From Amphiscolops sp. MND2022 (Eukaryota): 64,000 nt of DNA. The notes under the pieces were generated by a model. That model was not told where the DNA came from. It saw nothing but the letters and a program-made list of their open reading frames with translations, and ran no database searches. Of this stretch, positions 7,530-46,057 are shown in pieces. Made by a program: the position numbers and the translations under genes. The DNA is taken from NCBI GenBank assembly GCA_964187785.1, contig OZ076409.1, positions 44,394,001 to 44,458,000 of the forward strand, in the 5' to 3' direction. Numbering within the stretch: position 1 is the stretch's first letter; each line of letters opens with the position of its first letter.

Positions 7530-7627
7530 CTTATGGCTCATCGAACTGAACTTAAAGCCATGGCATCTGATATAAATTAAAACATGATTTAATCTCAAGT
7601 TGAACACTACGATCTGAAACCAACTTT

Positions 7628-8158: not shown

Positions 8159-8199
8159 TTAATATGTTCTGGACAACGGTCGTCTTTTTTGCAATGTTT

Positions 8200-9290: not shown

Positions 9291-9449
9291 TGTGTAAATG
9301 AATTGTGAGATTACTGTGAGCAATCAAAAATCGAAAGGAATTGAGTTACTGGAATTTATTGGCTGATTTTCTTTTTGATTCAATTCAAAAGAAAGAAACT
9401 TTCGTCATTTGAATATGACGCGCAGTATTTTTTGAAGCTGCACCCTCTC

Positions 9450-14600: not shown

Positions 14601-15100
14601 CTGGGATCAACTTTTAAACTGTGGCATCAGCGAAGTCATGTCTCAATGTATGGCGGTGTTAGCAGCGCGAGAGGCATCGGTAGTTGTTCCTGCTGTGGAC
14701 GACTATCGGTCGGAATTAGCGGAGCAGTTAAACATGTTGGAGTTTGCTGTGCGCAGTCCTGTGCGTGGTGGGAGTCGCCGAGGAGTCGGCCCGAGGTCTC
14801 TTCGAGTAGGGACGGCTAGCAGTGGTAATCGTGCGCGTACCCAATCGGCAGTTGCCTTAGCTGAAAGCGTCCCGGACAGGGGTGTGGCTTATACAAGCGG
14901 GACACCGATTCGGGGTCGTGGTGCCTCATTGAGGAGTGCGAGCAAAGGTTCGACAGGACGTGGGCCACAGACGGCGCAAGCACGAAGGACTGGAGGGAAA
15001 CTTCGTGGATGCAAAACGCTTGTGCTTGCCAATCCATGTGATGATGAACGCGATTCTATTGTCACGAGCGAGAGTACCTTTCGAGGGTCTCGGCGGAACA
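11636..15100 (+). pseudogene. Decayed copy of the antisense multi-exon cargo gene in element B
   Basis: Exons homologous to the A cargo, with matching donors (GT at 11802, 12156, 12652, 13393). Shared peptides include RRLDAFLSSQLG, GTVGALAVEDF, FARCLLCRVDL...WEHWKGLEHTRLEQ, WDDLALYFG and CPRMCGSGRD. Frameshifts and a ~0.77 kb deletion near 14600. Confidence 0.85.
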
Positions 15101-15213
15101 AAAAACGGGCTGCTAGACTCTTCGTGGTCTATCTTCATCATGCCATCCGGCATGACACTCTCTGATGACTCGAATTACATGAACATGTTTCGCACCATGT
15201 TTCTTAACGCCGT

Positions 15214-18200
15214 TGTCATATTCAGTTCATTCCAGTTTCTGACCGACCTCCGCCGAGTTTCGGTTCAAAGACTATCTAGAAAACCAGGACTTGTTTACCA
15301 ACAAACTCGAAATAGACATTTAGTTAGCAGATAATTTATATACTTTGTAGTATCTGGGGTACAGTCGTTCGAACAAGTAAGTGATATCATTTTAATCTTT
15401 TTCTTTTTTGTTAGTTATTAATTTGGTATAAAAGAACATGGCGCACTCAGCTAACTTTCACACAAATTGTAACCTTCCTTAAAACCCAGAACTATGACCC
15501 AGGAAAATACAAATCCGAATATTGAAGTAAAGGCCTCGGATGGAAATTCGGTATTTACACCGAGCAATGGCTGGAAAGACTCAGACAATTTACAAAACGG
15601 TAACAAAGTTGATATCACAATTTTTTTGAAGAAGAAGACATTACAGAAACCGGATGGACCAGTTCACTCTTACGATGTAGTGTTTGTTCATCTCTTCAAT
15701 GGTTTGTTTTTTATGATTGTACTTTCATCTGATTCTTTGTTGATTCGGCCGCTTGCTGTATTTCTTCTTCGTTTATTGTTTTCACTGTTCGCTTGTTCTA
15801 GATTTTCTGTCTACCGGGATAACGAAAGAAATCATTATTAAACACCGGATCACCAATAACGAAAATGCCACAAGACGAAAGAAAATTGAAATCTACCGCA
15901 AAACAGAAGATACTAAGTAGATATCAAGACGTGAACAAAAAGGAAGTAAAGTTTCGGGGAAAATGCCCGTAAAGGTGGAATATGAAAACAACAAAGAGAA
16001 AACGGAAGTACTAATCACCGAAAAAACAGATATAACAACAATACTCGGTATGCATTGGATGAAAATATTCTAGCTGACAATCGAAACAGTGAGAAATACA
16101 TAAAAAAATTTCTGGATCTATATTGAAATAACGAAACAAAAAAGAAACAGCAATGAACATACAATTCAAACCCGGACAATTCCAGGGAAAATAAAAAATC
16201 CCGGCCAGTCCCACTACACATGCCAGAAGATGTGGGTAGGAAACAAGAGAAACTAATTAACTCCGGACATCTAGAGAAAATGAAAGATGTTGACAAAAAT
16301 TGTTTTTGTCACCAGTAGTTAGTACCGTAGAGAGCGATAAATTAATGAAAACAGCAAGTGACTCCAGAGAACTAAATGAGTTGCTTCAAAAGAAGACCAA
16401 ACATGCCAAATAAGGAAAAACAATTGAATCAAATTTCGGTAGAAATAACCGAACAACGCAATTATTCATCTAAACGTTGAGCAAGACTACGCATAGGGAA
16501 AAATGAGATTAACGGAAGAAACGCGTCGACAATGCGTATTTGCACAAACCGGAGAAAAACATAGCGGTTACTATAAATTAAAAAAAGTGTTTTACGGGCT
16601 TCCCAATATACCATCTATATTTCAAGAAAAAAATGACCGAACACTCGGATACTGTACACCAGCGTGGTTAGACGACTTAATTGTCGTATCCTGCGGAAAT
16701 AAACAAGAACACGAGAAGTGATTGTTCTAAAAAAAGAACGAAAAGCCGGACACCGGTCTAGCAAAACGAGTCATAGTTTTCCATGCACCAAACAAGATGG
16801 CTGGGACTCGAAATTGACGAAAACGGAAAAAACAGAATGCAGATACAGCAGAAGCTATTTTGAAATTTTATAAAACCGGAAAATACAACATAAATGAAAT
16901 AATTTCTCGAGGCATTACAAATAATGGAAATATTTCTACAGAAATTTTTGGAAAAAACGGACCGACGCCGGAAGTTACTAAAAAATGAATCATGGAACTG
17001 GTGAAAGGAGCGCGCGATCGATTCCGGAAAGATAAAACAAAATATGACCGAAAACCCATGCCTAGCACACCATGCAAAGGACAAAGATAAAATAGTGACG
17101 ACTGTTGCAAGTACAACAGGACGCTATGACAAAAACAAGATGACGGAAATACTGGAAAAACCGATAGCATACGGTAGTAAATGAGACCACAAAGAAACAT
17201 TCAATCGGTGAATTAGAATTTTTGGCGGTACTGTGGGCATTAGAGGAATTTCGATTCTACCTTTACGGAAAAAAGTTCACCTCCATACAGACCACCAAGC
17301 ATTTGAACAACTGATAAAAAGTACCTGGAGCAATAAACAAAACAGCGCGAGACTAACAAGATGATTAGACAGCATAACTCCCTTTGATCGATCAACACAG
17401 CATATTGCAGGCAGCACATTAAAACTCACCGACTATATTAGCAAAAACGAGGTAGGGGAGCCATGCCGGAATAAAATTACGATGCAGAAAACGTAATTAA
17501 TAAACTTACCGAAAAAGCGAAAGCGGATTTGAATCTAAAAGAGCATAGAAAATTAGGAGAACGAAAACAACGTGAACGCAATCCAAAAAAAAAACAATAG
17601 AAGAATATCCGGGCAGTCCGATATTAGCACTCCGAAATTAAATCAACGGTCAAGAAAATTATTACACTTAAATTGACTGAGAAAATGTTTACCATTGGGG
17701 AGCCTTCCGTAAACTAATGGACATAATCGGAAGGCGGAACAGCAGTCCAGAGCGAGACGACTCGTGGAACAGAGGATTGCGCTATCGCGGCCTGGATCAT
17801 CACTGCGACGCCGGTACGATCCTCAGACACAGCGCACGCTATTTGGACCATCACGTCACAAAAAAGAGGTGGGGAAGAGATTGCCGGGACTGATGCGGGA
17901 GCTGATGATGATAGCCAATAGACTGGGAGGCAGCTACCAGCCTATCATACATGAAGTAGAACCCGATGAACTACCAGAGGAAGGAGAAGTTGAGTAGAAG
18001 GCAGCCGAGACCAAAGAAAACAGTGTGATAATGCGGGGCGACAAATTACCAGTCGTGGACTTCAGCAAATACAACGTGGATGGCAAAGAAGCGCATTACA
18101 ACCAGATATATCACATTAACTGAACACTTAACGCAAACAAAACGATGACCGAGGACCTCACCAAGTACGCTGAGTTCATATTCAAGATGGACATGAAAGC

Positions 18201-26067: not shown

Positions 26068-27150
26068 TGTCGGAACCACTGTCAGTACTTGTAGTTGCTG
26101 GATTCAGCCTGTTCCCTTCCCCATTAACGGAGGCAAACTGATTGGTCAGTGTAAGGACGATATTGGTAAGGTCACCGATTTGTCTATTTATCTCATTAAA
26201 TCGTTGGTCAATGTTATAACTGTTACCATTTTGACGTCTAGTTAAAACGTTGTCGGAGTCAAGGTCTACCATTTGGTCTCTGGATAAAAGTTCAGGGAAA
26301 CTGGCTTCACTTTCGTTATCGCTTGATCTATCCATATTTTCAGTATCTACTTGTCTATTTTGACTACTTTGAGATCTGGTAATTACCATGAAAGGTCTGG
26401 AAGTTTTAGGTTGAATTGAAATGTTTTAATGTTAAAATAAGGATTGATAACTCGTAAGCAAGGTAGTAGGCAACTGGTTATATCAATGGTTACAACTCGT
26501 GAAAGAGTTCGGTTTTACCCGATTGTGTAACTATAAAGGTGTGTTAGCACCTTTCCTTTTAGTCAATGACATTCGATTTACTAATTGCTGTTTAATTGCA
26601 CTTGACGACTGGTGGCTACAGTCGTGACGGGTGATAATCGGCGTTTAATTATTCATGTTTGATCCAGTATGACCGCAAGCACCAGTCATTTTAGCACGCA
26701 ATTGTCTCAATTGCCTCTTAAACTGAGGCTTTACTACGGCGTGTTCTTATCATCATGGTGACTGATTCAATTATCGTTTGGAGGATAATTACTAAAAGGC
26801 ATTGTACAAATTGCTAATATGAATGAACGAAATGTAGTTGTTATGAATGATTGAATATTCTGGTAATACTTTACATGTAATATAAAAAATGGATGATGAA
26901 TGATTAAATCACAAACTATCACGATAGCTGATGACTGATTGTTTCAGTCTTGGTTTCTAAACGATGCACAATAATATGAATGAATTTAGTATTGATGACT
27001 GTTAGTTCCAGTCGTTATACTCTCAACTGTATTGTTCGGGGAATAAATTACTGCAATGTATTTTCATGATGATCTGTATTTTAGGGAGTTTGATGTATAA
27101 ATTAATGTTTTAGAGTTCGTTTAATTCCTTCATGCTTGGCGGGCATGACA
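26068..27150 (-). repeat. 3' LTR of element A
   Basis: Direct repeat of 39895-40977 with roughly a dozen substitutions by eye. Includes a copy of the Gag N-terminal ORF (26057-26389). Confidence 0.97.
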
Positions 27151-27165
27151 TTCCCCCCCCTTTTT
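27151..27165 (-). promoter_or_regulatory. Polypurine tract of element A
   Basis: Minus strand AAAAAGGGGGGGGAA directly abutting the 3' LTR. Confidence 0.92.
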
Positions 27166-27968
27166 GAGAGAGAGCAGGCTGTAGGGGTAATGGGTAAGGT
27201 GAACGGTCGAGTTGAGAGGTAGCAGATATCTGAGTGGAGTATTGAACAGCGGCTGAAGTGGCATGCAAGGTATAGAGAAACGCGTGGGTGGCAATGTAGC
27301 TTCTGGAAACATTCGGAAGCGTGAATGGACAAGGTGAGGCAGGCAAATAGTAGGTAGTCGGAAGTTGAAGTCTATTTATAGAAACGGTTTGACAGCCACG
27401 TCATCCGTGTAGTGCGCATTGAGTGTGATGTTTGTTTAAGCAACTTTTCATCGATCATCGGCAGTTGATTGATTTGTTGTGTTGCCATAGTGAAAGTCAG
27501 TCGAGTCAATTACTGTTTGAATTGAAATTTGATCCCGCTTTAATTTGAGAGTATTCACCTCCGTTTGTCAACCTTTTGCTCATTCTTCCACAATGATGAA
27601 AATATGTCCATGTTTTGTTTTTTTGCACTGTTAGTCCTGTGTTTTTCGGGTATCGCTTGTACTGATAAGATTGTTCGGGGAGTTAGTCTTTTTTGGCTGG
27701 GAAATACGACTGCTTTCTTTCTGCTTCTTGTAATTAGCATTTGATGTCTGGTGGAAGTAGGTCCAAAAATATGGTTCCTTGAATGTCCAGTATTACTAGA
27801 GTAAAACTCTTTGATGAGGAGATCAGGTATCCATTGTATATTGGAATAGGTGATCAGTCTATAACAACAATAAATGGAAGAATGAGCTTTTGCAGTCGTG
27901 TCTTCGTCGCCGATTATTATTTCCCCGGAGAGTTTCAGTTATTTCCTTTTCTCCCAGCGTTATCCAAT

Positions 27969-30900
27969 ATGCCTGATGATGAGGCAGGTCAGTCCTTTGG
28001 TCCCGGATTAGCTGAGTTAGTCGCTGAAGTGGAGAATCAGATGGCCGGAGAGGGGGCTCAGCTAGGTGGAAGTGCAGGCGATCTGGAGTTATCAGGATTA
28101 TTGCTGGAGACTAGTTACTGCTGTCAGTTTGCGGCTCGGGTATCTTCTGCTAATATCGCTGGTTTAAGCGATTTATTGGATGTCGTTCTCTCCCAGGAAT
28201 TTGGTAAGTGCTCACTTCGTATATTGTACTACTATCAGTGGTATGTCTAAAGCGTAAGGGAGAGTTAAGTCTTTCCTTCAAGTTTGTATACTTTCAAGTT
28301 TGAGTCCCGTAATGTTAGGGAGTGTCAGGCGTAGCATTTTAAATAGAGTGTTCTCGTGTTTGTAGCTGATGTCAACATGTCCGACGTGGTCAGTTATTTA
28401 CGTCGCTTTCGTGCTACGATAGCCACTGGAACTGCTGAGGGTTCTGAGACGGAGGCGGCGCCCATCCTTCGTCGACTGGATGCCTTTCTGACATCGCAAC
28501 TTGGTAGGTGAATTCACGGTTACTGTGAAGTTAAGTTATCTGCTGGGGGGGTCTTTTGGTTCTTTTGTTGTTCAATACCAATGCATGCAGTATACGGTTG
28601 CTGTTCTCTAACCAGGCGGTGATAGATGCCTTCAGTCGTTGAGTCCAAAGTAGGTGCTATGAACTAAGGGTTACTTTGCAGATGCCAACGTTCGAGCTGA
28701 TGTCATTGTGGGGCAGTTCACTGAATTGTTTCAACGTGTAGAACGGGAATTTCAGCAGTGGGTGAAGGCTGCAATCGAGTCTAGTTTGGGTCGGCTAGGG
28801 ACAGTGGGTGCTCTCGCTGTCGAGGAATTCCTGGACAAAATGAAGGAAGCGTTGCGAGAACTGGGTCAAACTCCTGTCGTTCCCCGTGGTGGTGAGACTT
28901 CTTCTCTACCACGCTCTGTAGCTGGGAGCATCTCTGGTGTGGACGATCGTCGTACGGCAGTGGAATCTGATGTGCCGTCTGAGTTTGGAGAAAAAAGCGT
29001 CGTTCCTTCTGGGGGGACTTCGTCCGCTGTTGTCTCCACATCAAAGCCTGGTAAGAACTCTCAAAAGATCATGTGAGGGGTTTTAGTTTCAAGTGGTAAA
29101 AAAATAAGGGATGTATATAACGTACTACTACTGCTTAAGGACAAACACGTTTTTTTTTCGAAAGGTTTTGGCTGGACAGTGGTGCTATGTGATTTATGTT
29201 GTGTGTTAGCAGGACGGAAGCGTGCTATCAAAACGTTGAAACCATCATTTTTCGTTTCTGGGGTCGTGGGGACCTTCGGTGGTTTCCCCCGAAACAAACG
29301 TGTGGTGGACGGATTCGCAAGGTGTCGTCTGTGCCGCGTTGATTTAAGTATTGCCGGACGCGGGCTACATAACTTGTGGGATTATTGGAAGGGGCGAGAG
29401 CACACTCGTCTTGAGCAGCGCTTCCGCATCATGTCTAATAGGCCTCTATTGGACAAGTCCTGTAGGCCCGTGTCATTGGACGAGGATCGGAGAATTCGGA
29501 CAGCCAGAGTGTCAGAGCCACCTGTCATTCTGGAGTCAGAGGTGAAGCTGACTGTAGAAGAGCGGATTGCGGTCGAATTAGAAGAGGAGGCAGCTGGTTC
29601 GAAACCCGAGTTGTCGGAGTCCAGTGCTTCATACCTCTGGCTATGCTGCTTCATCAATAACTTTGTTGAACTGAGGGACTTTTCAAGCGTTGTGCGGTCC
29701 ATGGAAGTGTGGTCCAGTAGCATGCGGGGCGAGCTGGTTTTCAGTGAGAGGGTGCTATCATACCCGAAATGTCAGGTAATACATGTTTTGTTCGTCTCTT
29801 TTTTTTGTGTTGTGTTCGTGAAAGTTGGTTCTTGTCTGCTAGTTCGTGTTTGCAGTTGCTGACTGTTTTCATTGGCAGTACTTGCTGAGAAGTGTCACCG
29901 TTGTATATTTGTTGTAGAGTCTTGTGTTATACGGCCTGTATCCATTTGTCATGGAGAAGCTGAGCGATCCACTTTCTGCTGGGGCGCGGTTTGGTCTGCA
30001 CGTCCGTACTGATGGGTCGTTGAAGCGAGTGGATTGCCACATTTTTGACGCTCTGACAGTCAAGATGGTTGTGTTAGCTGCTATTCCTGGTGGTGGTGAG
30101 TGGAAACGCTCACTACTCAAGATCATTGTCTCTGTTCTGGCCTGTGTGGAGTCTCATGCGGGTCTGTGCGCTGTGAGTGTGGGAGAGAATCTGCGTCTCG
30201 GGCGTGCGTTAGCTAGCATCGCGCACCCAACCATGACTTTGGTTACTCGTCGTCTCGATGTGGACTGGCTGAAGGATTTGCTGCGGCGCACGTTTCTACG
30301 AGAGTTGAGTGGACTGGAGCCTTTCTGCGTGTTGGAGTATTTCCGGTTCCGCTTAGCCGCCGTCATCGGTGGTTCGTCGTTTGACAATATGCCAAGGCTT
30401 CGAGAGGTAATTGATTTTAAGTTTGTTAGCGCGTTTGTTGTTCTCTTTTCGGGGACTGGTGTGAGTATGTGTGGTAATGTGTGGTCGTGGTCTGCTTTGT
30501 TCTAACTCGGTGCTAAGTGGTGCTGCGCGCTTCCAGGAGTTGTCGGCACTGTGCACCGAACTTGTGGAGCGATGGGACGACCTCGGTGCCTACTTCGGTG
30601 TTCACCGGTCAAATACTGTGTCCGAATCGCGGAGTATAGCCAGTATGGAAACTCAAGTCTTCAACGATGCTTTGTCGAGGCCGCGATTTGCAGTTTTGAA
30701 ATTTCTGGCAGAGACAGGTCAGTATAAGAGTTTTGAGTGTTACTTGTGTACGGGTGTGTCGGTACTATTTTTGTTGTAATTGTTGATTTGGGTGTTATCG
30801 ACGACTGAGTTGTTAGGGTGTGTAGTTTCTCGACATTTTGTTTGTGATTCGCCTGTGTGTTTCAGTTGTTGCAAAGTGTCCTCGCTTGTGTTCTGCTGGG

Positions 30901-32145
30901 CGAGATCGGAACTTGTGGTTTGAGCGGGAGCTGGCTGCTTTCCTTCGAGAGTTATTGTGTCTGGTCGTCGAACACTCATCGTTACCACCTGATTTTGAAG
31001 TCCTCGCCGTGTTGAAGTTGCGACTGGGCGAGAGTAAGCCTGTTGACAAGGCCCGATTTGAAGTGCTGTTCGGCCAGTACTTCCGCTTCGACGTGGTCAG
31101 CCAGAAGCCTTTCTTTTATAAAGAAGTGCAAAATTTCCTCAGGACTGTGTGCGAGTCGTGCATTGGCGATTATGACCAAGGGTGGGTTAAGCAGCTCAGC
31201 TTGTTGTCGCTGGATCCTTATGCTATACAGTCGGTGTCAATGGATCGGCTGACAGACATCCTTGTGGGTACACTTTCTGTCCTCAGCTTTGGGGATCTAT
31301 GCAGAGGAGATCAAGGTGCCATCATCTTGCAGCAGTATCGCGAGGTAGTCAACTACTTCAAGCATCGATGGGAGTCCAATGCTTCGGTGGTGCCAGTTAT
31401 TGACGATGCCATGTCTTTGTGGCTGTCATATCCTTCGTGAGACCGGTGCCAAGAATTCCGGGGCATTGTGGAGATTCTTTTTGTGGGAATGCTCCATGAT
31501 TCGTATGCTGCTGATTTTCAGGATGTAGGAGACACAGCCCTCGATGACGGTATCATGCTGTCAAGTTTGAACATTATTCGAAGCTGGATGTCGAGTGGTT
31601 TCGGCGGGCATTCTCGACTCTCGATGACTGGATTTGTTAGACACTGCAGCACTACAGACATGCAGGTTTCGCGGTTAACCGATGAAGGCAGAGCTATCCC
31701 CTGGGACCAATTGGTTAAGAGGGGGGTTGATGAATCGCTTGGGCGCTGTGTCACAGTACTGGAGACGACTGGTGGACTACCTACTCGCACTGTCATTGAC
31801 CATTATGTGTCTGCTGTTTGTAATCAGTTGCGGACAATGGAGTCGAGTCCAACTGCTCCCCGTCGGAGTCCTGTCAAATCAAGGCGTTCAGCAGCTCAAG
31901 CGCCGAAATTGCAATCCGAGGTCGTAGTGTCGTCAGCAGGTCCGAGTGAGTCAGCTCCGAAGCGCAAAGCAGTCAGTAGGACGTCAGGGGGCAATCACGG
32001 ACAGAGGACCGGTGGGAAGCCGGACAAGAAAGGGAAGCGCACTCTGGCTACCTTTGAGACTGAAATTGTACAAGCCAGCAGGCGGGCTTTTTCACTCGAA
32101 GAAAGCAGTAACGAGGGCGGCTCCAGCCGTTCTACAGAGTATTAG
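27969..32145 (+). CDS. Antisense cargo gene of element A: ~1084-codon zinc-finger, hAT-transposase-like protein. Predicted exons 27969-28203, 28366-28503, 28682-29050, 29213-29775, 29918-30406, 30537-30717, 30866-32145. One in-frame TGA at 31438-31440.
   Basis: All six GT-AG junctions are phase-compatible and join open frames (3255 nt total). Homologous exons and intron positions in element B. CxxC finger FARCRLCRVDLSIAGRGLHNLWDYWKGREH. The start codon and the exon 4 and exon 6 acceptors are less certain. Confidence 0.8.
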
Positions 32146-33890
32146 TTGGCAGAAGGACTTGTATTAGTAATCAGACTTTCCATATTTCTTTGTGTATTCA
32201 GCTTTTTGTGTATTTATTGAGTTCTGATATTGTGATTTGCTTTATATGCTGTAATTTTTTTTTGTTTTGGCCTTAGTAGGTCTTGCACTTTCTAGTGATT
32301 TAAATAGATGGTTGCAACCGTCATAGTACTCTTCTTTGTTTTTCCTTAGGACTGGACAGTTCGGACGTCACAAGAGGTTTTTCACTTGTTTTGCTTGTAT
32401 GTACGTTTATGCATGATGCTGGACTGGCTTTGTCTTTCTTAAGTGTGTGTATGGGGTAACCCATACTTCGCTATGGTTTCGAGTGGACTTACGCTCTAAT
32501 TGTTACGGCGTGTTCAGGGAATTTATTGAGGAAGTTCATGTTGGTTATGGTTGTCACTGTGGTAACCATTAGCATAAACATTTTTTTTACGCGTCAAACT
32601 GTGCTGTGCATGGTACTCGAGAGCCAGGTTTTCATGTAAGTTGTTAGTGAAGGCTCGAGAATGGTAACGAGACATTCAGACCAATGGCCTTCCAGTCCTT
32701 AGCGCCGCACTGTAAGGTACGTGACTGAGCAGCTTGTTCATTACGATGACGGAAGGCTCAAGGAGTGTATCCTTGGTTTGATGCATGACTTATTTTGTGT
32801 GTATGTAATATTCATGTTATAATTTTTAGGGACTTTTTTACATGTATTTTAGTGTGTTTCAATATATTACATGTAGCGGTCTGTGTACGCGACGTCATCA
32901 TCGTTGATGTGTGTCCTGGGACGTCATCATACGTGATGTGTGTCGTCAAGATCGCGAGTTCTTACATTATGTTAACTTCGGTGGTAGGAAGTTGTTAGAC
33001 TGAGAACTATGGGTGTGTGTAGATTTTAATACTAAGCAGAGGTTGGGGCCGCGCACTCCTGAATTTTTTCCCAAGCGAGGCGAAGCCTTCGCATATCTGG
33101 TTACTTTTAAGGGGTCGGGTATTCATTGTTTTCTGAATTTGGCAAGCTCTTGTTCTTTACCGGCGTTGTGTTATCGTCTATGGTTGGTTTGTTATTTTTG
33201 GTGTTCAGTTCATTGGAAAAGGTGAATTCCCGTCGGAACCACCTATGCAAAACTAACACTGAATCCAGTTGCTAAAGAGCAACCTTCATCTGTATGGTGA
33301 CGACCAACCACACAAGCGCGCTTTTCGACGACGCACCCACACAGCCAGCACTATGGGTTTACGTCGAAATGGGTGGAGTATTGGTTGTGTTGTCTTAACG
33401 TTTTCCAGGCAGCAGGTCGTCACTGTTAGTTTGTTGCGCTTGTAGAGAACGTTGTTTTCGTTCACGTTTCGTTAGTTGTGTTTCGACGGTTTTCTAAGCG
33501 AAGTGTTTCGTTTCGTTTGTTGACGTGGTAGTTTTGGTGCGAATTGACTAAATTATCGTTCACATTTTTGCGTGCTACGTGTGCTTCTGGGCCGCAAGTG
33601 TTGGGATGATTGGCGTTTGCAGTCGTTGCGTTACCGTTTGTTTGCTTCTTACGTAGTAGTTGACGCTAAGTAATTAGACAGCTCAAACAGTGACGACGGA
33701 AGTGGATGGTCATTTAATCGTATTAATTGGATTGTGTGCTAGGTTGTCCGTAATTTTCAATATTGCTTGTTGAGTACTGGTAAACAGGGTCGTAATTGTA
33801 AAACAATTACTTTTACGGTCAAGGAGCGAGACTGTTTATGACTGCTGTTAGCAGTCGTTGGTTTGAGAAATGCAATGAGGGATGGGTGTT

Positions 33891-36800
33891 TTACAGGTTT
33901 CTGTTTTTCAGAAGTAACTGTTGCAGTGAAGGCGTACCATGTAATTCGTGCATTAAGAAATCAGGGTACGTGGTAGGTTTTGGGTTGTGTCTGAGCCCGT
34001 ATCGAGACATGGTGTGTCGTGATGGCGCTGGAGGGCGATCATTTGTTTGGTGTTCAGAATTGTTCATGCTAGCATTATCCGGTTGTGGTTCTTGTGTTTC
34101 AGCCTGGCTTTCAGGTATGGAGATGTTTTGATCAGGTTCTATGTTTTGCCGTTCGTAGTAGATCATTCCATGGTCTGCGTGTAACTCTTCGAAGTTTGAT
34201 TGTTCAGGTATTACTTGTTGTGGCTGTTCATGGACATGATCAGGTAGGTTATTGTCAAATAACTCCTGCTCGTTGAGGGCGTCAGGATCTTCGAAATATC
34301 GTGATGCATTGTCTTGAATGTCTTCGATTGGTGCGTTTGGCGTGAATGGGCGAAGCCTCCTTCTGTGAACGCATTGGGTGCGAAGAGTGCCAATCTTACG
34401 TATGATGTAATTTGAATTTGACAAGACTTTGACCACTTTGTATGGGCCTTCCCACTTGAATTCCTTGAATGGAATTTTTTCAGATTGCTGAGACAGTCTT
34501 TTGTTTAGCAGAAAGGTGAAATCATTTACTTTCAGAGGTGAAGCTTGCGCTTTTCGGTCGTAGTAATTCTTGTATTTGTGAAAGGCTTCGATTATGTTGT
34601 CATGTGTTTGTTGGAATTTTTTGTTCATGTTATATAGTATTCCAGTGACGTCAGTGGTGTTACGTTGTTCGGTTAATGGATGGCTAAATTTGACGTCAAG
34701 GGCATTGAACGGAACACGTCCGTGGAAAACTTCAGTGGGTGTGCATCGGATAGCCTGGTGGTAGGTCGTGTTATGGGCCATTACGGCCATGTTGACGTAT
34801 TTGTGCCATTGCGGTGAATCAGCTGAGATGTTGATTTTGAGAATTTGTTTCAGTTTTTGATGGGAACGTTCAACCATCCCAATCGTTTGTGCGTGTTTTA
34901 CAGAGGCATGTTCGATTTTTATACCGGCAGACTCCATCAGGGAGTTGAGCAGTTGAGATGTGAATGTCGTTCCCTTATCAGTTAAGATTGTCTTGGGTAC
35001 ATACGAGTGTTGCGTAAAGATTTGCATGAGTGCTTCCACGACCGACTTTGTGTCTGGTTTACGGATTGGTATTGCGAAGAGGTACCTAGAAAAGTAGTCG
35101 CATGCAGTGAGAATGTGTGTGAATCCGTTGGAAGGTGGGAGTTCACCGACTAAATCAATTTCTAGTATGTCTTCTGGTCCGTTGCAGGGGTCGTATATTT
35201 GTTGAAGTGGTGGTGTGATTTCAGCTTTTCGGATTGGTTTTGAGCGGATGCAGTCCTGGCAGTTCGAGACGTATTGCAGTACCAGTTCAGAGAAGTTTGG
35301 TGAGTAGTACCTTTTACGCAGTTCATGGAGCATTTTGTTACAACCAGGGTGACCTTGCAGAGGGTCATTGTGCAGGGATTGAATGATTTTCCGAATGGTT
35401 TCAGGGGGAGTGACAACTTGTTTACACTTGATTTTACCTGTACCATCAAAAAAATTCCTGTACAAAACGTTGTTCACTACTTCAAGTCTTTTCTTGTTTT
35501 TAACTAGTTTTTGGAAAAACTGACTTTCAAAGTTCACATGATTAGGAAGGGTTTCCTTTTGGTTCAAAATTCTAATCATGCGTTGGATGTCAAGGTTTAC
35601 GACTTGATCCTGGATGATTTGAAACTCCCCATTGGGGCATACCTGGTTTACCACGTTGTCATGAAGCTTTCGTCTGAATCTGGTGAACGTCATCTCGTCA
35701 TGTTGCCCTGTGATGATGGGTGTGATTTGATGACGGATGGTTTCTATCCTCTCGAGAAACTGTCCACTCGATTCGCTGCTGCACATGGGGACCTGGTTCA
35801 GGATGGCTTTGATGGCTTCATTTTGTTTGGTGGTGGTAGTGTGTTGGTCATCAGGTATGTATTCTTCTTCTTCGTCGTCCTGCTTGGGTGTTCTCGATGC
35901 CAGGTCGATCTCGACGTGGAAGACTGGTATCTCGTCGTTGAGTTTGAGGTGTATTCTTTCCTCTGGTCGTATGTCAAGACGAGACAGGTAGTCTGCAGCA
36001 GGGTTCTCAGTTCCAGGAACGTGGGCAAGTACGAATTCGAATTGGAGCGTCTGATCGCAGTAATTCCATAGCTTCGGGGAATCCGTTTAGACTGAAAAAA
36101 TCGGGTCAGTGCTTTATTGTCCGTCATTACTATTGTTGGTTTCTTGACACCCCAGAGTATGTGTGCGAATTCATCGAATGCGAAATGCATCGCCAGGAAT
36201 TCCTTTGCGTACATTGTTAGGGACATTTGGCCCTCCGTGAATCGTTGGGATCCAAATGATACTGGGGCGTACGTTTTCAGTGGTCCATCGTTTGTTTCGG
36301 TATAGTCTTCTATCAGGAGGACATATCCTGCCGCATGCTCGCTGGCGTCGCACATTATAACAAGCTGTTTATCGGGTAACGGCAGACGCAGCGAAAGTTT
36401 CGCAGCTTTGGCAAGATTTTCATTAATCTCGAAGATGATGTCCTTGTGCTGCTGGGTCAACTGGAATTTGACGTCTTTTTGAAGTAGTTTGTACAGTGGG
36501 GTGAGTTTTTCTGCTAGGCGTGGTATGTACTGCCTGTAGAACTGGACAAACCCGATGTACCTTTGGAGGGATTTGATTGATGTGGGCAATTTTATCTTCT
36601 TGAGGAAGTCGTCGATCTTGTCTTCGAGTGGGGCGACACCCTTTGATGTGATGCTTCTCCCGAGGAAGTCGATCTGTGGGTGGCCAAACGCACATTTTGA
36701 CATCGACAATTTCAGTCCTGCTTTTTGGATTTGTTGGAACACAGCTTCAATGTTTGACAGTAGCTCATCTACAGTGTGGGCAGCAATCCCAATGTCGTCG

Positions 36801-38695
36801 ACATATTGGGCACATTTATCCGCTTTCACCAGTGCATCAACGTATTCTCGCACCGTGCTGTTGAATGCTGATAGGGATCGGTTGAGTCCTTGTGCCAGTC
36901 GTAGATAAGCAAAGGTTCGACTTCCAAAATTAAATGCCAAGAGTTGTATGGATTGTTCATCCGCCATCTGCAAACAGTGGTACGCCTGCGAGCAGTCCAG
37001 CTTGCAGAAGTACTTCTTCCCTGCCATGTGCTGGGCGGCGTCGGCGATGGTGGTGACTAGATGATTATGTTGGTTGTAATCATTTTTCAAGAGGTGGTTG
37101 ATTCTGCGCAGGTCTACATGAATGCGAAGTTTCCCATTGGGTTTGCGCTGGGCAAATATTGGTGAGGAATACTTGCTGTACGGCAACGTCGTGATGATCC
37201 CGTACTCTTGCATCAGCGCTAGTTCGACGAGCAGGTCATATTTGAGGTTGGTGGGTGTAGGTAAGCTCTGCGCGTAGACTGGTTCATCATGCTTCGGAGT
37301 GAGTTTGATTTTGAAGTCAGTATTGATGCCTATGTCGAGGCGGTGTCTGGCGAATACATTGTTGTACTTCACAAGGAGGTTCTCAATTTGTTGTTGTTCG
37401 TGTTCATTCGGGATTGAGTTCTCCCATTTGAAGTTAGCAAGGAACTCCTTGCGTTGTTGGTCGTCTGCTGTTGGGTCCAGTTTCTCTTCTTCACGGAGTT
37501 GAGTGATTTCGTCATATATCCGCCTTTCAATGCGGTTCAGCTTGGACGGGTCGTCACATGTCTCCGGGGTTGGGTACCATCTGCGGTTGGTTTCAGTGCC
37601 GGGTTCCTGGAACAGTTGGTTCAGTACGTTGTTGGCTTCGTCCGGGTATTTGGTTATTAGTGTCAATTGTTCGTTTGACATTAGTTGTAGGTTTTTTGCT
37701 TGATTGGGAGTCATTATTTTGAAGGTGGCCACTGTCGTGTTCGGGTTGAGGGTAATTGCATGGCAAGTGAGGTTGGTGATCTGGACATGGCTTTTCTTCT
37801 CAGTGATTTGCGTTAGGGCGGGGGACACCAGTAATTGTGTCTTCCTTTCAAAGGCAGGAAAGGTTTCCACTGTGCCCTGGATTGTCCCGAGTTCCCTTTC
37901 TGCTAGGACGGGGACAATGATTTGGTGGTCCGGTTGTATGACTGTTTTCTGTGTCGTTCGTAATTCGATCATCTGGATTTTGTATCGTCCTCGTTCTGGT
38001 TTCAGTTGCAGGGTAATATCCGGGAACTTGACTACGTTGTTGGCAAGGTCAAGTGTCACTGAGTACTTTTTGAAAAATGACATTCCGATCAAGATGTTAC
38101 CCATGGTTGGAAGAATCATGAAGGTTTCCTCGAATACTTTACCTCCGATGAAGAAGCGAAGTAGTACCTGTTTCCGGACCGGGACGATGCTTCCGTTTGC
38201 GATTTGGACTTTGAAGTCCGGTGCTGGGTACTCTTCGAGAAGTGCGGCTGGGTGTGCAGACAGGATTCGTCTGAGTTCGTCTTCTGACATTGCACTTCTT
38301 ATTGCTCCTGTGTCGAGGAGTCCGTGGTTCTCGTATTCTCGGAATTGCAATGGGACGTACAACATCTTGTCCTTTTTGTTTAATTGGAGTGTTGCTGTTA
38401 ACACCTGGATCGCCACGTCTTTCTTTCGGTTCATTGTTTTCCTTGTACAGTCAGTCGTTGTAGTCGAGTTAGAGTGCTGTTTGTCTTCTGTCGTTTGTAA
38501 GTTCACGTCCGTTGGTTCGGAGGGAGGGTTCACTTTGTCATTGGTTGTTTCGTGGGTAGTTGTAGTCTTAGGTTTCTGATCCTGCCGAAGATCAGTTGCC
38601 CGGTTTTTGTAGTTCTTTGTGTAGTAGTAGTTGTTCATGTTGCGCACTTTGTTATTGTAATAGTCAGTCGGATGACGTGGCTTCAGAAGTTTTTT
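33891..38695 (-). CDS. pol: Pol polyprotein (protease, RT, RNase H, integrase), split by a 1-bp deletion near 36076
   Basis: LLDTGA, YVDD, MCDAS, HHCC (HNDPLQGH...CQDC), DDE (EIDLVG/TDKG/ERSH) and WEGPY motifs. Restoring one C in CCCC gives KRIPPKLWNYCD...ADYLSR in frame with ORF 33891-35786. Confidence 0.95.
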
Positions 38696-40216
38696 GGCTG
38701 GCTGGATGATCCTTCGGTGAATTCCTGTTGGTAGTAGTCATCACTGGTTTGCTGTTGTTGGTCCCCTGGTGCAAGTTCGTTCATTTCATTTGCTGGGTAA
38801 GGAGTTGTGTGCTCTTCGGAAGTCGCGTCGGAAGTCCCTGTTTTCATTTGTGGTTTGCCTATTGTATGGCACGCTTCCGTAGGCGGAGGTTTGGGGTATT
38901 CTGTAACGGCAGTCTTTTGCGGAGTGACCTGTATATCCGCAAATTTGGCAGACCAGTTTGGCATTGTATTTTGGTTGTGTTTCTGCGTTGTTATTTTGCT
39001 GTTCGGGCTTTTTCTGAGGTTGTGAGTTGTTGTTGCCTGCTGCTTCGTCACGCAGTCGTTTTCGGCACTCAGCCCATTTGTGTCCGTAAATTGCGCAGTA
39101 TCTGCAGTTGCCATCGAATTTCTTTTTGATTGTTGGTCGTTCGTTTTCGTTCCTCTTCTGAACAACTGGCTTCTCTGGGACTTCTTGTGTCTGGATAGCT
39201 TGGTTGAACGGTTGGAGGAGTTGTTGGTTTGGTAGTAACTGGGCATATTGACATCTTCTCTGGACGAATGTTTTGATGTCTTCAATGCTGGCATTGTGTT
39301 TTCCTGCAATTGCCAGTTCGTTTTGGAGCTGGATCGGTAATTTGGCAAATAGGAAGGTCTGGACAATTTCCTGTGCCTTTTCGCCGTAGGCTTGTTTGGC
39401 AATCTTTTTGTAATTGGCGAGGAAGGTACTGAATGACTCAGTGGCCGGATCGTATCGTAGCTGGTCGAATTTGAACTTCGAGACTTCTGAGAGTTCTTCC
39501 TTTGCGTATTCTTTTTTGAATGCCGTCAGTATATCTCTCAGTGTCGTTTCTGTCATGATTGTTAGGGTTTGCCAAAACTCAATTGCGTCATCTCTGAGAA
39601 GACTCTGAAAGTAGTTGAGTTTTTGTTCTTCGGTTAGTTTGTGGGCATGTGGTCGTAAGTGGTTGAGCAATAAACGCTCGAATTCATTGTATTTGTCTCG
39701 ATTTCCCTTGAATAGAGGTATTTGGGTCTGCAGGATTTGTGGATGGGTCAAGGTTTCCCCCATTGTACTGCGGAGATGGTGGATTTCCGTCATCCCATCT
39801 GCTATCTGCGGAATACTTTCGTCACTCCTTGGTGTCCCGTTGGGTGGTGTTGTTCGAGATCCTGATGGTCGTGGGTTCGAGACTCCTGTCACCATGTCGG
39901 AACGACTGTCAGTACTTGTAGTTGCTGGATTCAGCCTGTTCCCTTCCCCATTAACGGAGGCAAACTGATTGGTCAGTGTAAGGACGATATTGGTAAGGTC
40001 ACCGATTTGTCTATTTATCTCATTAAATCGTTGGTCAATGTTATAACTGTTACCATTTTGACGTCTAGTTAAAACGTCGTCGGAGTCAAGGTCTACCATT
40101 TGGTCTCTGGATAAAAGTTCAGGGAAACTGGCTTCACTTTCGTTATCGCTTGATCTATCCATATTTTCAGTTTCTACTTGTCTATTTTGACTACTTTGAG
40201 ATCTGGTAATTACCAT
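38683..40216 (-). CDS. gag: Gag, starting inside the 5' LTR. Probable 1-bp insertion near 38800 truncates the annotated ORF at 38786.
   Basis: Retrotransposon gag core (IPLFKG...LRDDAIEFW) and two CCHC knuckles, CRYCAIYGHKWAEC and CQICGYTGHSAKDC. Removing one base joins it to ...YPANEMNEL...QPKNF*, which ends at the slippery site. Confidence 0.92.
38689..38695 (-). promoter_or_regulatory. -1 ribosomal frameshift slippery heptamer A AAA AAC (gag/pol)
   Basis: CAG CCA AAA AAC TTC TGA ends gag. The -1 frame reads KLLKPRHPTDYYNNKVRNM straight into the pol ORF. Confidence 0.8.
39871..39894 (-). promoter_or_regulatory. Primer binding site (tRNA-Leu-like)
   Basis: Minus strand TGGTGACAGGAGT directly after the LTR, followed by TCGAACCCAC complementary to a tRNA T-arm. 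Confidence 0.8.
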
Positions 40217-40977
40217 GAAAAGTCTGGAAGTTTTAAGTTGAATTGAAATGTTTTAATGTTAAAATAAGGATTGATAACTCGTAAGCAAGGTAGTAGGCAA
40301 CTGGTTATATCAATGGTTACAACTCGAGAGTGAGTTCGGTTTTACCCGATTGTGTAACTATAAAGGTGTGTTAGCACCTTTCCTTTTAGCCAATGACATT
40401 CGATTTACTAATTGCTGTTTAATTGCACTTGACGACTAGTGGCTACAGTCGTGACGGGTGATAATCGGCGTTTAATTATTCATGTTTGATCCAGTATGAC
40501 CGCAAGCACCAGTCATTTTAGCACGCAATTGTCTCAATTGCCTCTTAAACTGAGGCTTTACTACCGCGTGTTCTTATCATCATGGTGACTGATTCAATTA
40601 TCGTTTGGAGGATAATTACTAAAAGGCATTGTACAAATTGCTAATATGAATGAACGAAATGTAGTTGTTATGAATGATTGAATATTCTGGTAATACTTTA
40701 CATGTAATATAAAAAATGGATGAAGAATGATTAAATCACAAACTATCACGATAGCTGATGACTGATTGTTTCAGTCTTGGTTTCTAAACGATGCACAATA
40801 ATATGAATGAATTTAGTATTGATGACTGTTAGTTCCAGTCGTTATACTCTCAACTGTATTGTTCGGGGAATAAATTACTGCAATGTATTTTCATGATGAT
40901 CTGTATTTTAGGGAGTTTGATGTATAAATTAATGTTTTAGAGTTCGTTTAATTCCTTCATGCTTGGCGGGCATGACA
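39895..40977 (-). repeat. 5' LTR of element A
   Basis: Direct repeat of 26068-27150, followed on the minus strand by the PBS. Confidence 0.97.
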
Positions 40978-41370: not shown

Positions 41371-41683
41371 GGATCTCTTTCACTATGTCCCCCCCCCCCT
41401 ATATCACTCGTTACACTATGTCCCCCCTAGAGAGAAAGAATGTTTGTGGCCTATTTATATTCATCTCCTATTGGCTAATCTCAAATGCTCTGTCAATCAA
41501 TTGATCTCGTCATAACTAACGACCCTTTTTATTGGTTCTTATTATGAATCCCCACTCAGCCAATCAGAAGCGTTGTTAGATAAGAGCAGATCTGCGCTAT
41601 TAGAATGTGCAATACATGTATTTAATAGCGTTTCACTATGTCCCCCCTTTTTGCTGTAGGGGGGGATATAGTGAAAGAGATCC
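41371..41683. mobile_element. MITE with 8 bp TSD (Merlin-like); second, left-truncated copy at ~46089-46385
   Basis: TIRs GGATCTCTTTCACTATGTCCCCCCC / GGGGGGGATATAGTGAAAGAGATCC and TSD AAATATTT. The empty site is visible at ~41124-41172. Confidence 0.8.
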
Positions 41684-42824
41684 AAATATTTTTATTCAAG
41701 AACACAATGTGCTTTCGTGTTGGGGGATATTCCAACAAGGTGTACCTGGAGGGGGGAGGGGCGGGTGTAGGTAAGAGATGACATGGTCCCAATTATTTTA
41801 ATGAATTGAATTTTCATCGCAAACGATGTCGACATAATGCACCATGGAGTTCGAACCTTTCTTATCAAGAAATATTGAACGAATTCACACTGGTTTGAGT
41901 GGAAACTCGTATAAGGCTTGATGAAACACGATCGATCGCTTTTTGCAGCATTCACAGACGCACTAGAATGTACGTATCTTTTAGTCTTTCTGCAGAGGTC
42001 GTTCACTTTGATTGATTCTCCGACTGTTTGACATCAAAATATTATTGTTTGGCTGTGTGTGTCACTTGAATTACAGCACGCGTTGAACAAATGGAGTTCG
42101 ACTGGTTGTGATGTTTAAACACATGAACAGACCGAGATTTTTGACTCATATCGCGTGAACAAACTATTATCGTTAATTTAACTTCTAATATTGATGTCAG
42201 TAACGAACTTCATTAGTATACGAGTTCCAGTGGGTATAATAACGCCCCATACTTGACTTTGACATTAAATTGAAGCATAAAACTTGGCATTTTGATATAA
42301 ATGGTCTGATTTCCATTACATGTATACAAGGCTATATCCATCTTATTCCAGTTTCCACCCCTCGGTGTTATTGAAATCGTGATAATCGGCTGCATCGGTA
42401 CTCTTTTGACTTTCGGTAGTCGGTCATCAAAGCAGAATCTTGAGTAACCAACTAGATCTGCTATTCAACCTAATGTTTCGACTTCTCGTTTCGTTTCCAA
42501 TTGAACATTCAATCGGCGAATTAGCGAGCCAATGAAATTATCGAACGCTGTGACGTCACCATGTCTTTGATTCTGCTCCGATAACTTTAGACACGAGCAA
42601 AACATTCTCTTACCATTTATCAAACCAATTTTATATCGCTTCACTTGCCGCTCGCTGCACAGAACTAAAATTAAACTGACTGGTACGATTATATGACGTG
42701 TAAATCTAGTTCACGCACAAAATTTCACGACCTCTGCTAAAAATTTTTATGACCTCCAATAAACTGCGGCAACATTACATACCTTTTAATTTATAGAAAC
42801 ACATCTTTGAATTGAATTTAAAAT

Positions 42825-43946
42825 ATGATCAGAACACACAAACATTTTTTATCCAACAGACCCAAGACATCAATCCTGCAGCGAAAACCTGAAATCAAGA
42901 AAAGCGTATCGTTCGCTGACAGTTTCGGGTTCAGTTTACAAGATGTTAAAATGTTTGACCGTCTAGAAGACTTTTCCCACATTTTGTTTGACCTGGCCAA
43001 TCTAGATTGCTGGAAGTACAATATCCTTGATTGCAACATCCGTGATGACCCCAAAACCAGAACTCAATTCTCTAATGTGAGTTCTAGAGATGTTGACACC
43101 CTCACAGAACTGCTAAATGCGAAAACTTACAGTTGCACACCTCTCATCTCTCCCAAATTCTCCCAAATTTCTCCTACCAGCAAAGTCAATAATTACACAC
43201 AAACCCTTCAAAGAAATACTTCAGCTAAAGGTGTGCAAAAATCCATTATTGAATTGACAAAAATATTATTTCAAGGCAAAAAACGTTCGTAAAAGAAAAC
43301 ATTTTATTGTATCTTTACTGTTTGCAAACTCTTGCGAAAAATCAAACAAACTCTTGCAATTTTTGGCAATCGAATGATTCATGAAAACTTTTTTTGACAA
43401 TCTCCAATTTTCCCAGATCTGAAAAATCATGCATTATATTCAGTGTTTACAATTTTCTATTGCACTATTCCGATTTTTCTACACATTAGTTTCCTTTCAG
43501 AAGTGAAGAAAGAAACTCCACAACCCTTGGAAGTTTATTATATTCCTTCTTTTAAAGTTTCCTCCACATGCGAGCCAGAAATCTGTCAGTACTTGGAAGT
43601 AAAATTGGAGAGTCTTCGCCACACGTCCACTTTCAGTCTCACCGGAACTGTGGTTGTCAGGAATATCTGTTTTTCCAAAAGCGTCCAAATTCGCATTACT
43701 GGCAATTCATGGAAAACTTTCGATTGCATCACTGCCACTTATAAAAATGCCAAATGCCAGCATCTGGATAGATTTTGCTTCGACGTGGACTTATTGAACT
43801 TCTCAGGAGAACAGCGAGAACCCTCAACCCTCAAATTACCGGTCACACTAGAGCTGTGTGTCAACTACATAGCCGGAGAAAACAATTTGACTTTTTGGGA
43901 TAATAATTGCGGATCAAACTATAAACTGTACAAAGTTGCCATCTAA
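42825..43946 (+). CDS. PPP1R3: Protein phosphatase 1 glycogen-targeting regulatory subunit (CBM21), copy 1; join(42825..43230,43501..43946), 283 aa
   Basis: KKSVSFAD PP1-docking motif. CBM21 motifs GTVVVRNICFSKSVQIR...W, DRFCF and FWDNNCGSNY. Phase-1 GT-AG intron. Confidence 0.9.
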
Positions 43947-44293
43947 TTTTTAACTTCCATTTTGCTGGTGATATCAATTACTTGATCATTTGTGTTCATC
44001 TAGTACCTTGTCAATTTTTATTGCTCTTCGTGTATTTGTTTGATATGACCCTTGCAAACTCTTAACTATTCATCTTAGGATGACGGAACTTTCTGAGTAA
44101 ATTTCTATTACTTGTTTTTGTGCTGATCTGAAATTCTACCAAAAATGACTTTTAAAAGACGTAGCTTTCTTTACTTAGAAAAAGCCCATGGAAAAGAAAA
44201 AGCACACGAAAACTAACATCGGCGAGTTTTCAGTGGAAATTCATTTGGAAAAAAAACATTGATATCCTAGGTTGAAATCCTACAATTAAATTC

Positions 44294-45162
44294 AACAAGT
44301 CATGAACGACCCAAGTCGGCGCTCGGCTCAAGGTTCAAAAAAGAGGCAAGTTTTTTTATATATGCAAAAGAACACAATTATGAAAATTTTATCAAATTTA
44401 CAACGGCAAAAATACTCGAAGTGATACCCACAAAACTCCTTTTTCCCCAACTCGAAACATCCAAAAACCCAAAGTTTCCATTTTTTTTTCGGAAGTGTGT
44501 GTCGAAAAAGGAGCTTTCAACTCGCACAACTACTTTTTTCCAAGCAGAAATCAGTTACGAAAGAAAGGGGTACCCTTTAACCAAATGAAAGTTTTTTTCG
44601 GAAAAAAGTCGCAGAGTTGAAAAACCGTTGAGAAAACTCTAGTTCCACAGGATCAAAAACTACCAAACAGGCCACCTTCAAGACTCTGGGAAACTATTTT
44701 CTATTTTCCTTTACAGAAATTCTCAAAAATGTGAAACTTTTCGAAGTTTTTTCAATTTTATTAATACTTCGGTAAACTGCACAGTGCCGAAAAGCCAGAA
44801 GTGGCCATCTATATTAGCAAAACGCTTTGTTTCTGCTGAAAATCAAGGGAGGGGGTTCAGGTTTGACAAAAACAAACGTCGCATAGTGCCGAAAAATCTC
44901 AAATGAGGCCCTTTGGTCTCCCCTCTACTTTTGCAAGCATTAAAAAGTCATTCAGTTCAGTTCGAGACTCGAACCCACGAACTTCTGCTTCCCAGACATT
45001 AAAAAATCCGCGTAAACTTTAGGCCAAGCGGCACTTAGTTGTAAATACGTTACAGCTCAGTGGTGGTAGCTCATATTGCATATAGAAATATGTCAGTTCG
45101 CTGGCCTTTAAAAAAGCCACTGCTATAGTCAGGTCTTCTCTTCGAGAAGCGCCGACTAAAAA
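44294..45162 (-). mobile_element. DINE/HINE-like element (duplicate at ~48996-49865)
   Basis: subTIRs AGTCGGCGC (44314) and GCGCCGACT (45149). B-box-like GGTTCGAGTCT on the minus strand at ~44966-44976. Confidence 0.65.
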
Positions 45163-45237
45163 GACGCTGTACAACAAAGTACAGAAGTACGCTAAGTACA
45201 GTAGTTTTTAAAAATTTTAATCTGTAATTGCTTTAAC

Positions 45238-46057
45238 TTTTTGTCGGTGCTTTTCAGAAAAGAGCGACTATAGTCATGGCTTTTCGTCAGTTTTTTTCGA
45301 TATCCCTGAACTGTCCAATAGTTCTACCAAAAGATCTCCAATTTTACAAAGTCAGTCAGTCAGTTGGCCTAGTAGTCAGCGCGGATTTCCCGCGGTCTAA
45401 GAAGCAGGGCGCACTGGACCAAGAAACTTGTTTGCAAAAGTAGGGGGAAAACCAAAGGATCTCCCCTTCAGAATTTTTTCCTGCACTATGCGACTTTCCT
45501 TCGGACCTCTTTCGCTTTTCAGCAGCAACAACGTTTTGCGGGCGTAGATGGAGACTTTCAGTTTTTTCGGCACCATACAATTTACAGCGTTAAAACAATT
45601 GGAAAATGATTTTCCTGAAATATTTTTCCACAATTTCTGTTTTCTCCAAAAGAAATATGTTTCCCGACTCTTGAGGTGTTTCCTGACCTCTGTTACTTTT
45701 TGATGAGTTTTTTAACGATTGTGGAAAATAACCAGCTTTTTCGTCTCAGCGTGTTTCCGGAACTTTCATTTGTCGAAGGGTACCCCTCGCTTTCATAGCT
45801 GACTTCGGCTTGAAAAACAAGTTTTTTGAGCTGAAACCTTTTTCGGCAGTATGAGACTTTTCTGAAAAAACGCCCAAAAATTTCAAATGTTTTTTTTTGT
45901 ATGTTTCTAGTTAGGGCAAATGTGGTTTCGGAGACTTATGCAAATCCCTTGGGGTATTTTCTGGCACTGAGAAACTGCAAAAAGCTGAAAGTTGTGTCTT
46001 TTGCATATAGAAAAAAGTTTGAGCGGGGCGCCGAATACGACCGGTCCTGGCTTGTTT
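45238..46057 (+). mobile_element. DINE/HINE-like element, head-to-head with the previous one (duplicate at ~49941-50760)
   Basis: 5' TTGTCGGTGC...GCGACTA and 3' GGCGCCGAAT...CCGGTCCTGGCTTGTT. Confidence 0.65.

Follow-up and report, generated by a model that had tools for sequence, protein, structure and literature searches.

What is the long, intron-split gene that lies antisense inside a retrotransposon of Amphiscolops sp. MND2022, and where did it come from? The 64-kb window analysed here (contig OZ076409.1, positions 44,394,001 to 44,458,000, referred to below by positions within this whole stretch) contains a complete long terminal repeat (LTR) retrotransposon, element A, on the minus strand at 26068-40977. 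The 6.7-kb interval between its pol gene and its 3′ LTR carries a gene on the plus strand, hereafter the cargo gene. An earlier note, made from this sequence without database searches, had taken the cargo protein for a catalytically dead hAT transposase domesticated by a retroelement. We report that the cargo is a real, conserved accessory gene, and that it is probably a disarmed hAT transposase. The full account, in which an antisense, intron-split, hAT-derived gene has lost its catalytic triad, is under purifying selection and encodes a probable nuclear DNA- or chromatin-binding helper that keeps its element expressed, has in our judgement about an even chance of being right.

The cargo gene comprises seven predicted GT-AG exons spanning 27969-32145, whose in-frame joining gives 1,084 codons, interrupted by a single stop at 31438; the product is about 1,090 amino acids long. 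Exon 1 (27969-28203, with the predicted start ATG in an in-frame GT-AG model), exon 2 (28366-28503) and exon 3 (28682-29050) encode a 248-amino-acid N-terminal extension without a match to any known family; exons 1 and 2 have homologues in other copies. Exon 4 (29213-29775) encodes a BED-type CCHH finger and a helical domain, as indicated by conservation and a Pfam zf-BED match below the cut-off. Exon 5 (29918-30406) holds a predicted RNase H-like core, placed by AlphaFold, fold searches and site counts, and exon 6 (30507-30717) a W-x-x-L-x-x-Y-F helix. Exon 7 (30866-32145) was delineated from open reading frames (ORFs), conservation and profile alignment and covers a helical region, a hAT-like C-terminal segment and a basic low-complexity tail. 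The span first proposed for the cargo, 29213-31620, was thus too short, since three earlier exons begin at 27969 and the gene ends at 32145. The window copy has three defects, namely the stop at 31438, a Tyr at the first finger His (29383) and the loss of the exon 6 acceptor. In 35 of 40 copies this acceptor lies 22 codons before the exon 6 Trp, which defines 30507 as the family start; the window copy has no AG there and only a downstream AG at 30537. The library protein P0068 contains the same 22 residues at the exon 5/6 junction and has no intron at that point, which provides an independent check of the splice model. A decayed relative, copy B, is found on the plus strand at 9448-15165. It retains an LTR fragment (9448-10253) and exons 1-6, and lacks most of exon 7 and pol.

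Is such a gene kept by the elements that carry it? We examined 44 loci, picked for diversity and not at random, in the 1.07-Gb genome assembly; a first look with exon 4 as the query had given 3,833 candidates, of which 150 were scored, and this figure is not a copy number. An integrase lies downstream on the opposite strand in 34 of the 44 loci, and the other 10 are truncated, rearranged or have too little flank. LTR pairs were seen at 21 loci and are at least 98% identical in 18 of them. Splice signals are retained at homologous positions: the exon 4 acceptor AG in 42/43 copies and its donor GT in 40/41, followed by AG in 41/42, GT in 40/40, GT in 36/36 and AG in 35/36. The splice sites are still kept where the amino-acid identity of exons 5 and 7 between copies falls to 30-40%. 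The ratio of nonsynonymous to synonymous substitution rates (dN/dS) was estimated for 17 pairs, ten of which are saturated at synonymous sites. It ranges from 0.03 to 0.07 over exons 4-7 in the four pairs from different subfamilies that are not saturated, from 0.03 to 0.11 between subfamilies overall, from 0.04 to 0.21 for single exons in saturated pairs, and from 0.2 to 0.9 in three very close pairs, where high values are expected after insertion. No stop interrupts exons 4-7 at 20 of the 35 well-covered loci (frameshifts were not counted).

The stops in the window copy and in 15 of the 35 well-covered copies, together with the high ratios (0.4-0.9) between very close copies, are what a neutral passenger would leave, that is, a nested transposon decaying inside the element. 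This explanation is refuted by the low ratios between subfamilies, the intact frames at saturated synonymous sites and the conserved splice sites, and we give it practically no weight. The cargo is under purifying selection, and the element very probably keeps it for the function of its protein. The earlier claim that the gene is carried and kept by a retroelement is thus borne out by its position in 34 of the 44 loci, its splice signals and its low dN/dS.

The gene is also probably present in other species. A profile of exons 4-5 retrieved 224 library proteins with E-values up to 0.001, and the best 150 of these 224 are all short pieces of the cargo family, down to 21% identity. Five of the proteins (P0068, P0122, P0126, P0127 and P0142) are distant relatives from other assemblies, with 21-28% identity and the same exon borders. 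The best matches of P0122 and P0126 in the Amphiscolops genome reach only 27-36% identity, and P0127 has none at an E-value of 1e-12; the lack of a close genomic match suggests that these proteins come from other hosts. A scan of JGI metagenomes with P0091 yielded no confirmed locus.

If the gene is kept, what kind of protein does it encode? All the motifs quoted in the earlier note are present in the window sequence, at the places and in the order described. The finger starts with CRLC at 29323 and has its His sites at 29383 (Tyr in the window copy, His in copy B) and 29401; across the genome copies the two Cys are found in 42/43 and 43/43 and the two His in 40/43 and 41/43. The helix motif ELVERWDDLGAYF is located around 30573 in exon 6, where W is retained in 41/41 copies, L in 39/41, Y in 38/42 and F in 42/42. 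LWLSYPS-stop-DRCQEF lies at 31438, and 37 of 39 copies have Trp in place of the stop. The basic tail has 19 Lys or Arg among 99 residues. Such conservation across the genome copies indicates that the motifs are more than chance resemblances.

The fold of the core was predicted with AlphaFold from locus L048, where the reading frame naturally continues from exon 4 through the intron into exon 5, with an alignment of 80 rows. The core is confident, with predicted local distance difference test (pLDDT) values mostly above 90, and its order of three strands, helix, strand, helix and strand corresponds to a five-strand RNase H-like topology. Hermes, a hAT transposase, is among the top matches in Foldseek, where its chains rank 2, 3, 5 and 6 (E-values of 4-7e-3, probability 0.96-0.98, 238-282 columns) and have the highest query template-modelling (TM) score; integrase cores rank after Hermes. 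In a structure comparison with VIA, Hermes 2bw3 aligns over 155 residues (Z 6.1, root-mean-square deviation 6.9), with model residues 216-382 on chain residues 150-349, whereas unrelated RNase H-like folds align over just 76-122 residues. The first helices after strand 5 align to Hermes up to residue 349. The top neighbours in a language-model atlas are ZNF862/FAM200/ZBED5/DUF4371 clusters, 10/10 in one clan. A profile of 14 hAT frames from the same genome gave a weak (E 0.02) but collinear alignment from the finger to strand 4, with finger on finger, helix on helix before strand 1, and strands 1-4 in order. Its scores beat block shuffles in 40/40 cases for exons 4+5, 40/40 for exon 5 and 39/40 for exon 4. 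The cargo finger retains the signature G-x-x-N/S-L-x-x-H and aligns with the BED finger of the genome hATs.

Several results weigh against this assignment. The first Foldseek match by E-value is ISCth4, of the IS256/Mutator type (E 4.1e-3), with a probability of 0.63 and a lower TM-score, and no Foldseek E-value is better than 4e-3. In VIA, Pelota and actin-like folds score higher (Z 7.5-7.8) than Hermes. The atlas score of 0.90 with 140 shared features stays under the tool's mark of 170 and counts as a lead. Pfam, run on the cargo exons and 80 family members, returned zf-BED only, below the cut-off (E 0.044-0.054; 0.054 for copy B), and no match to the hAT dimerisation domain PF05699. Profile searches of PDB with four alignments found no match, a hidden Markov model run against 66 frames from 40 hAT loci found none beyond the finger (E 0.006), and comparison with 117 Tip-group hATs stayed at the shuffle level. 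Taken together, the hidden Markov model and profile comparisons, which covered Ac-type and Tip-type hATs, were either weak or no better than shuffles. An unrestricted profile alignment matched the residues that precede LWLSYPS to the beginning of the hAT C-terminal domain (E 0.046), and when the test was restricted to the C-terminus 38/40 and 19/40 shuffles reached the score. The AlphaFold model of exon 7 (pLDDT 47) was too poor for use and its fold search gave no match; the atlas search with an exon 7 piece returned unnamed or unrelated clusters only.

These points leave some room, though not much, for descent from another DDE transposase (Mutator/IS256, P or Kolobok) or from a cellular protein of RNase H fold whose finger arose by convergence. 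The rank of ISCth4, the higher Z-scores of non-transposase folds and the C-terminal test would all suit such an ancestor; the finger-to-core spacing and order as in hAT, a Hermes match that includes the helices flanking the core on both sides, and the hAT-family identity of the atlas neighbours speak against it. We consider DDE-transposase descent of the cargo protein very probable. hAT descent specifically is likely, at a lower level of confidence, because four weak lines of evidence agree. Of the hAT order proposed originally, the RNase H-like fold with a BED-type finger therefore holds by prediction, and it lacks a formally significant search.

A donor was sought in the same genome. DUF4371 was not found with the query used. 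The pattern EQWxxLxxYF, which we take to be a Blackjack-type motif, has 9 matches, of which 3 are cargo copies at the exon 6 helix and none is a free hAT. Six loci (L071-L076) hold long intron-free hAT frames of 597-697 amino acids. These frames, which include the Ac type among others, have DDE motifs, and the cargo is not close to any of them. Inverted repeats of at least 40 nt were not found around the cargo (shorter ones were not searched for), and the copies sit inside LTR pairs.

Has the protein lost its nuclease, as had been claimed? In the window copy the first-Asp site (30005) is Arg, the second-Asp site (30182) is Gly, and the Glu site (31507) is Ala. The first site depends on the register. 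In one alignment, with inferred strand pairing, it is the Arg of HVRTD, which is acidic in 0/42 copies; in the other it is the Asp two residues on, at the end of modelled strand 1, with D in 22/42. The second site was set by profile alignment on the Gly of SVGEN. Its column holds E in 21, D in 5, G in 8, S in 7 and A in 1 of 42 copies, and D/E in 59 of 76 library matches. We positioned the Glu site by eye, three residues N-terminal to a conserved Phe; it is E in 5/40. No copy among 37 has a full DDE triad in the strict registers, and the window copy has none in the relaxed ones either. The claim of acid loss thus stands for the triad as a whole and has to be qualified in its parts, since acids lie one or two residues off the sites in the window copy and D/E survives at the second-Asp site in 26 of 42 copies, where it is likely a relic. 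CxxH after strand 5 is also absent: eight columns of this region, compared in 40-41 copies, contain no Cys. Kat1 no longer cleaves when DDE is lost, and without CxxH it fails to form hairpins (PMC4763223).

Some lineages might instead retain a shifted acidic triad that still binds metal or nicks DNA to some extent. Such a triad would fit the 5/37 copies in which each of the three sites has an acid on it or no more than two residues away (the relaxed registers), and the Asp that follows the conserved Phe by two residues in 39/40. The first-Asp site is acidic in none of the 42 genome copies, no acid is among the residues listed there for 63 library matches, and the CxxH that Kat1 needs for hairpinning (PMC4763223) is missing, so that we regard a working shifted triad as very improbable. 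Judged from these site counts, the cargo protein is in all likelihood without nuclease activity.

How could a disarmed transposase serve a retrotransposon? We propose that a hAT element inserted antisense into the interval that separates pol from the 3′ LTR. Because the gene is antisense, its introns would not be removed from the genomic RNA of the element, and the whole gene would be copied at each round. A separate promoter close to the 3′ LTR would drive transcription of the cargo. A conserved box, GCCACGTCATCC-N4/5-GTGCGC, lies upstream on the plus strand (27395-27417; at 10983 in copy B) and is a candidate cargo promoter element or binding site; it may be part of the promoter, as described for Grande gene23 (PMC7264820). 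The 22-nt box is kept in 34 of 43 loci although the flanking DNA no longer aligns, and its exact N4 form has 312 genome matches compared with 0 for a reversed control. The cutting activity, harmful to the carrier, would have been lost while finger and fold were retained, and the basic tail may be a nuclear signal. Hermes BED fingers bind repeated DNA motifs, the subterminal repeats (PMC10368747), and the cargo finger might bind DNA in the same way. The residues found where Hermes has Ser66 and Asn67 differ between subfamilies (H/S/Q and N/S).

A nuclear DNA- or chromatin-binding regulator of the element is the function we rank first, at slightly less than an even chance, ahead of a protein/RNA decoy and a targeting factor. 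Two results tell against it. One is that the position of the base-reading Arg70 of Hermes is D/E in 38 of 43 cargo copies, in a register that is inferred. The other is that elements exchange the cargo but keep their LTR and pol. Synonymous divergence between the window copy and L033 is 1.54 in the cargo and 0.19 in pol, and differences at fourfold sites amount to 0.60 in the cargo, 0.13 in pol and 0.10 in gag. For 32 loci, the cargo tree is broadly similar to the integrase tree (rank correlation 0.65), but the two have only 9 of 25 well-supported splits in common, the integrase tree being poorly resolved. The simplest reading of these sequence comparisons is that cargo genes have been swapped by recombination between co-packaged RNAs. 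Over 153 pairs, LTR distance correlates with pol (rho 0.64) above cargo (0.16, with cargo sites saturated), which speaks against strict cargo-LTR pairing; co-evolution of cargo and LTR is therefore not supported.

The same exchange, together with protein divergence that is fast relative to pol, fits an arms race, and a dead transposase could act in one through protein or RNA contacts, as a silencing decoy or antagonist or as a Rev/CERV-like export factor for genomic RNA. The acid at the Arg70-equivalent site, the added 248-amino-acid N-terminus, a conserved spacer block that is possibly an RNA element (see below) and the CERV precedent (PMC10309623) are in line with this possibility. The finger exon, exon 4, is the best conserved exon (dN 0.068 vs 0.100), and dN/dS is low, the pairwise values being without sign of positive selection; both count against it. 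We hold such a role to be unlikely, if still the nearest competitor of the regulator. An integration-targeting or insertion-immunity factor, which would bind chromosomal DNA and tether or exclude the integration complex, is less likely still: a DNA-binding finger and transposase body are retained and complete elements always inherit the cargo together with the integrase, but the few splits shared by the two trees indicate that the pairing is not tight. Returning to the regulator, the wider history, in which a retrotransposon lineage long ago domesticated a hAT, disarmed it and retained it in antisense, with a promoter of its own and six introns, as a tradable cassette protecting or activating the element, is offered tentatively, with a little less assurance than the regulator role itself.

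Element A itself is a young Gypsy element. Its 3′ LTR (26068-27150) and 5′ LTR (39895-40977), both on the minus strand, are 1,083 nt each and 98.9% identical; a polypurine tract adjoins the 3′ LTR, and GACAG forms a 5-bp target duplication on both sides of the element. On the same strand, gag (38786-40216, from ORFs and Pfam) starts inside the 5′ LTR, and pol (33891-38737) has protease, reverse transcriptase, RNase H and integrase in the Ty3/Gypsy order and is split into two frames in the window copy. The first ~107 gag codons lie inside each LTR (39895-40216 and 26068-26389), as they do in the copy B LTR fragment. The spacer between cargo and pol has a tandem GACGTCATCAT repeat (32891-32944), matched in many distant subfamilies, and a conserved non-coding block (33190-33346), with ~80% identity where the cargo DNA of subfamilies no longer aligns. 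Both are about 80-87% identical across distant subfamilies and may be RNA or DNA signals; an Rfam search of them gave no match. Directly after element A, positions 41389-50791 hold a 4.7-kb tandem duplication, 99.9% identical.

Cargo genes are also found apart from pol. Three loci (L044, L045 and L176, at ~1700-10600 in each) share a 98% identical unit with an intact-frame cargo and no pol. A cargo from a different subfamily, with an internal deletion, faces the intact one on the other strand, and the unit lies within larger duplicated blocks. In L043, extended beyond its pol-less cargo, long ORFs lie at 11431-13356 (minus strand, 642 amino acids) and 14892-15977 (plus strand, 362 amino acids). 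The idea that this pol-less subfamily (L043-L045 and L176) is a DNA transposon was rejected, since its relative L173 resides in a complete LTR element; four of the ten integrase-less loci belong to the subfamily of L173.

Hosts are known to domesticate transposases; in this case the owner is a different class of transposon. If the proposed history is true, one class of mobile element has turned the enzyme of another class into its own regulatory factor. The locus also indicates how a retroelement can preserve an intron-rich gene, and that a gene of ~1,000 residues can go unseen by Pfam inside LTR elements. In ZBED, ZNF862, FAM200 and DAYSLEEPER/SLEEPER, host-domesticated hAT proteins, the transposase body is kept as a probable DNA-binding protein; the cargo differs in being owned by a multi-copy retrotransposon family and not by a single host locus. 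Like Hermes, it has a BED-type finger, a helical domain and a predicted RNase H core followed by helices (PMC10368747, PMC4763223). Unlike hAT transposases, it has no DDE at the predicted sites, no CxxH, no RW motif and a shorter first hairpin, bears the 248-amino-acid N-terminal addition and the basic tail, and moves inside LTRs with a 5-bp duplication. Our survey, which covered mainly open-access literature and did not extend to Repbase, turned up no published LTR element with an accessory gene derived from a hAT or other DDE transposase.

Elements of plants and fungi are known to have extra antisense ORFs in the interval from pol to the 3′ LTR; the origin of these ORFs is untraced, and a review describes them as dissimilar to other transposable elements (PMC7264820). 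Grande gene23, RIRE2 and Retand TRP28/PF04195 match the cargo in position, orientation and family-wide conservation (PMC7264820, PMC11963269). Grande also has its own upstream promoter and a nuclear protein, and a regulatory role has been proposed for the plant antisense ORFs (PMC7264820). The cargo differs from these ORFs, which have no traced origin in that account, in its six introns and its traceable DDE fold (PMC7264820); introns go unmentioned in the paper on Retand, whose TRP28 is named transposase 28 and has no established role there (PMC11963269). PF04195, the plant TRP28 domain, was not matched in the 12 and 80 sequences scanned. The origin and function of Gypsy antisense genes are a puzzle (PMC7264820), and the ancestor, domains and subfamilies of the cargo make both testable. 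VANC of VANDAL is likewise an accessory gene that, in a working model, possibly acts on motifs of its own element; it lies within DNA transposons and derives from MAIN-like proteins, and we do not claim homology (PMC6719617, PMC13547354). Finally, animal LTR elements with accessory genes include those of rotifers, with captured ORF3s, and CERV of C. elegans. The products of these genes are described as esterases, DEDDy nucleases and env-like or export proteins, the enzymes with intact catalytic residues, and they are not transposase-derived (PMC5408684, PMC10309623).

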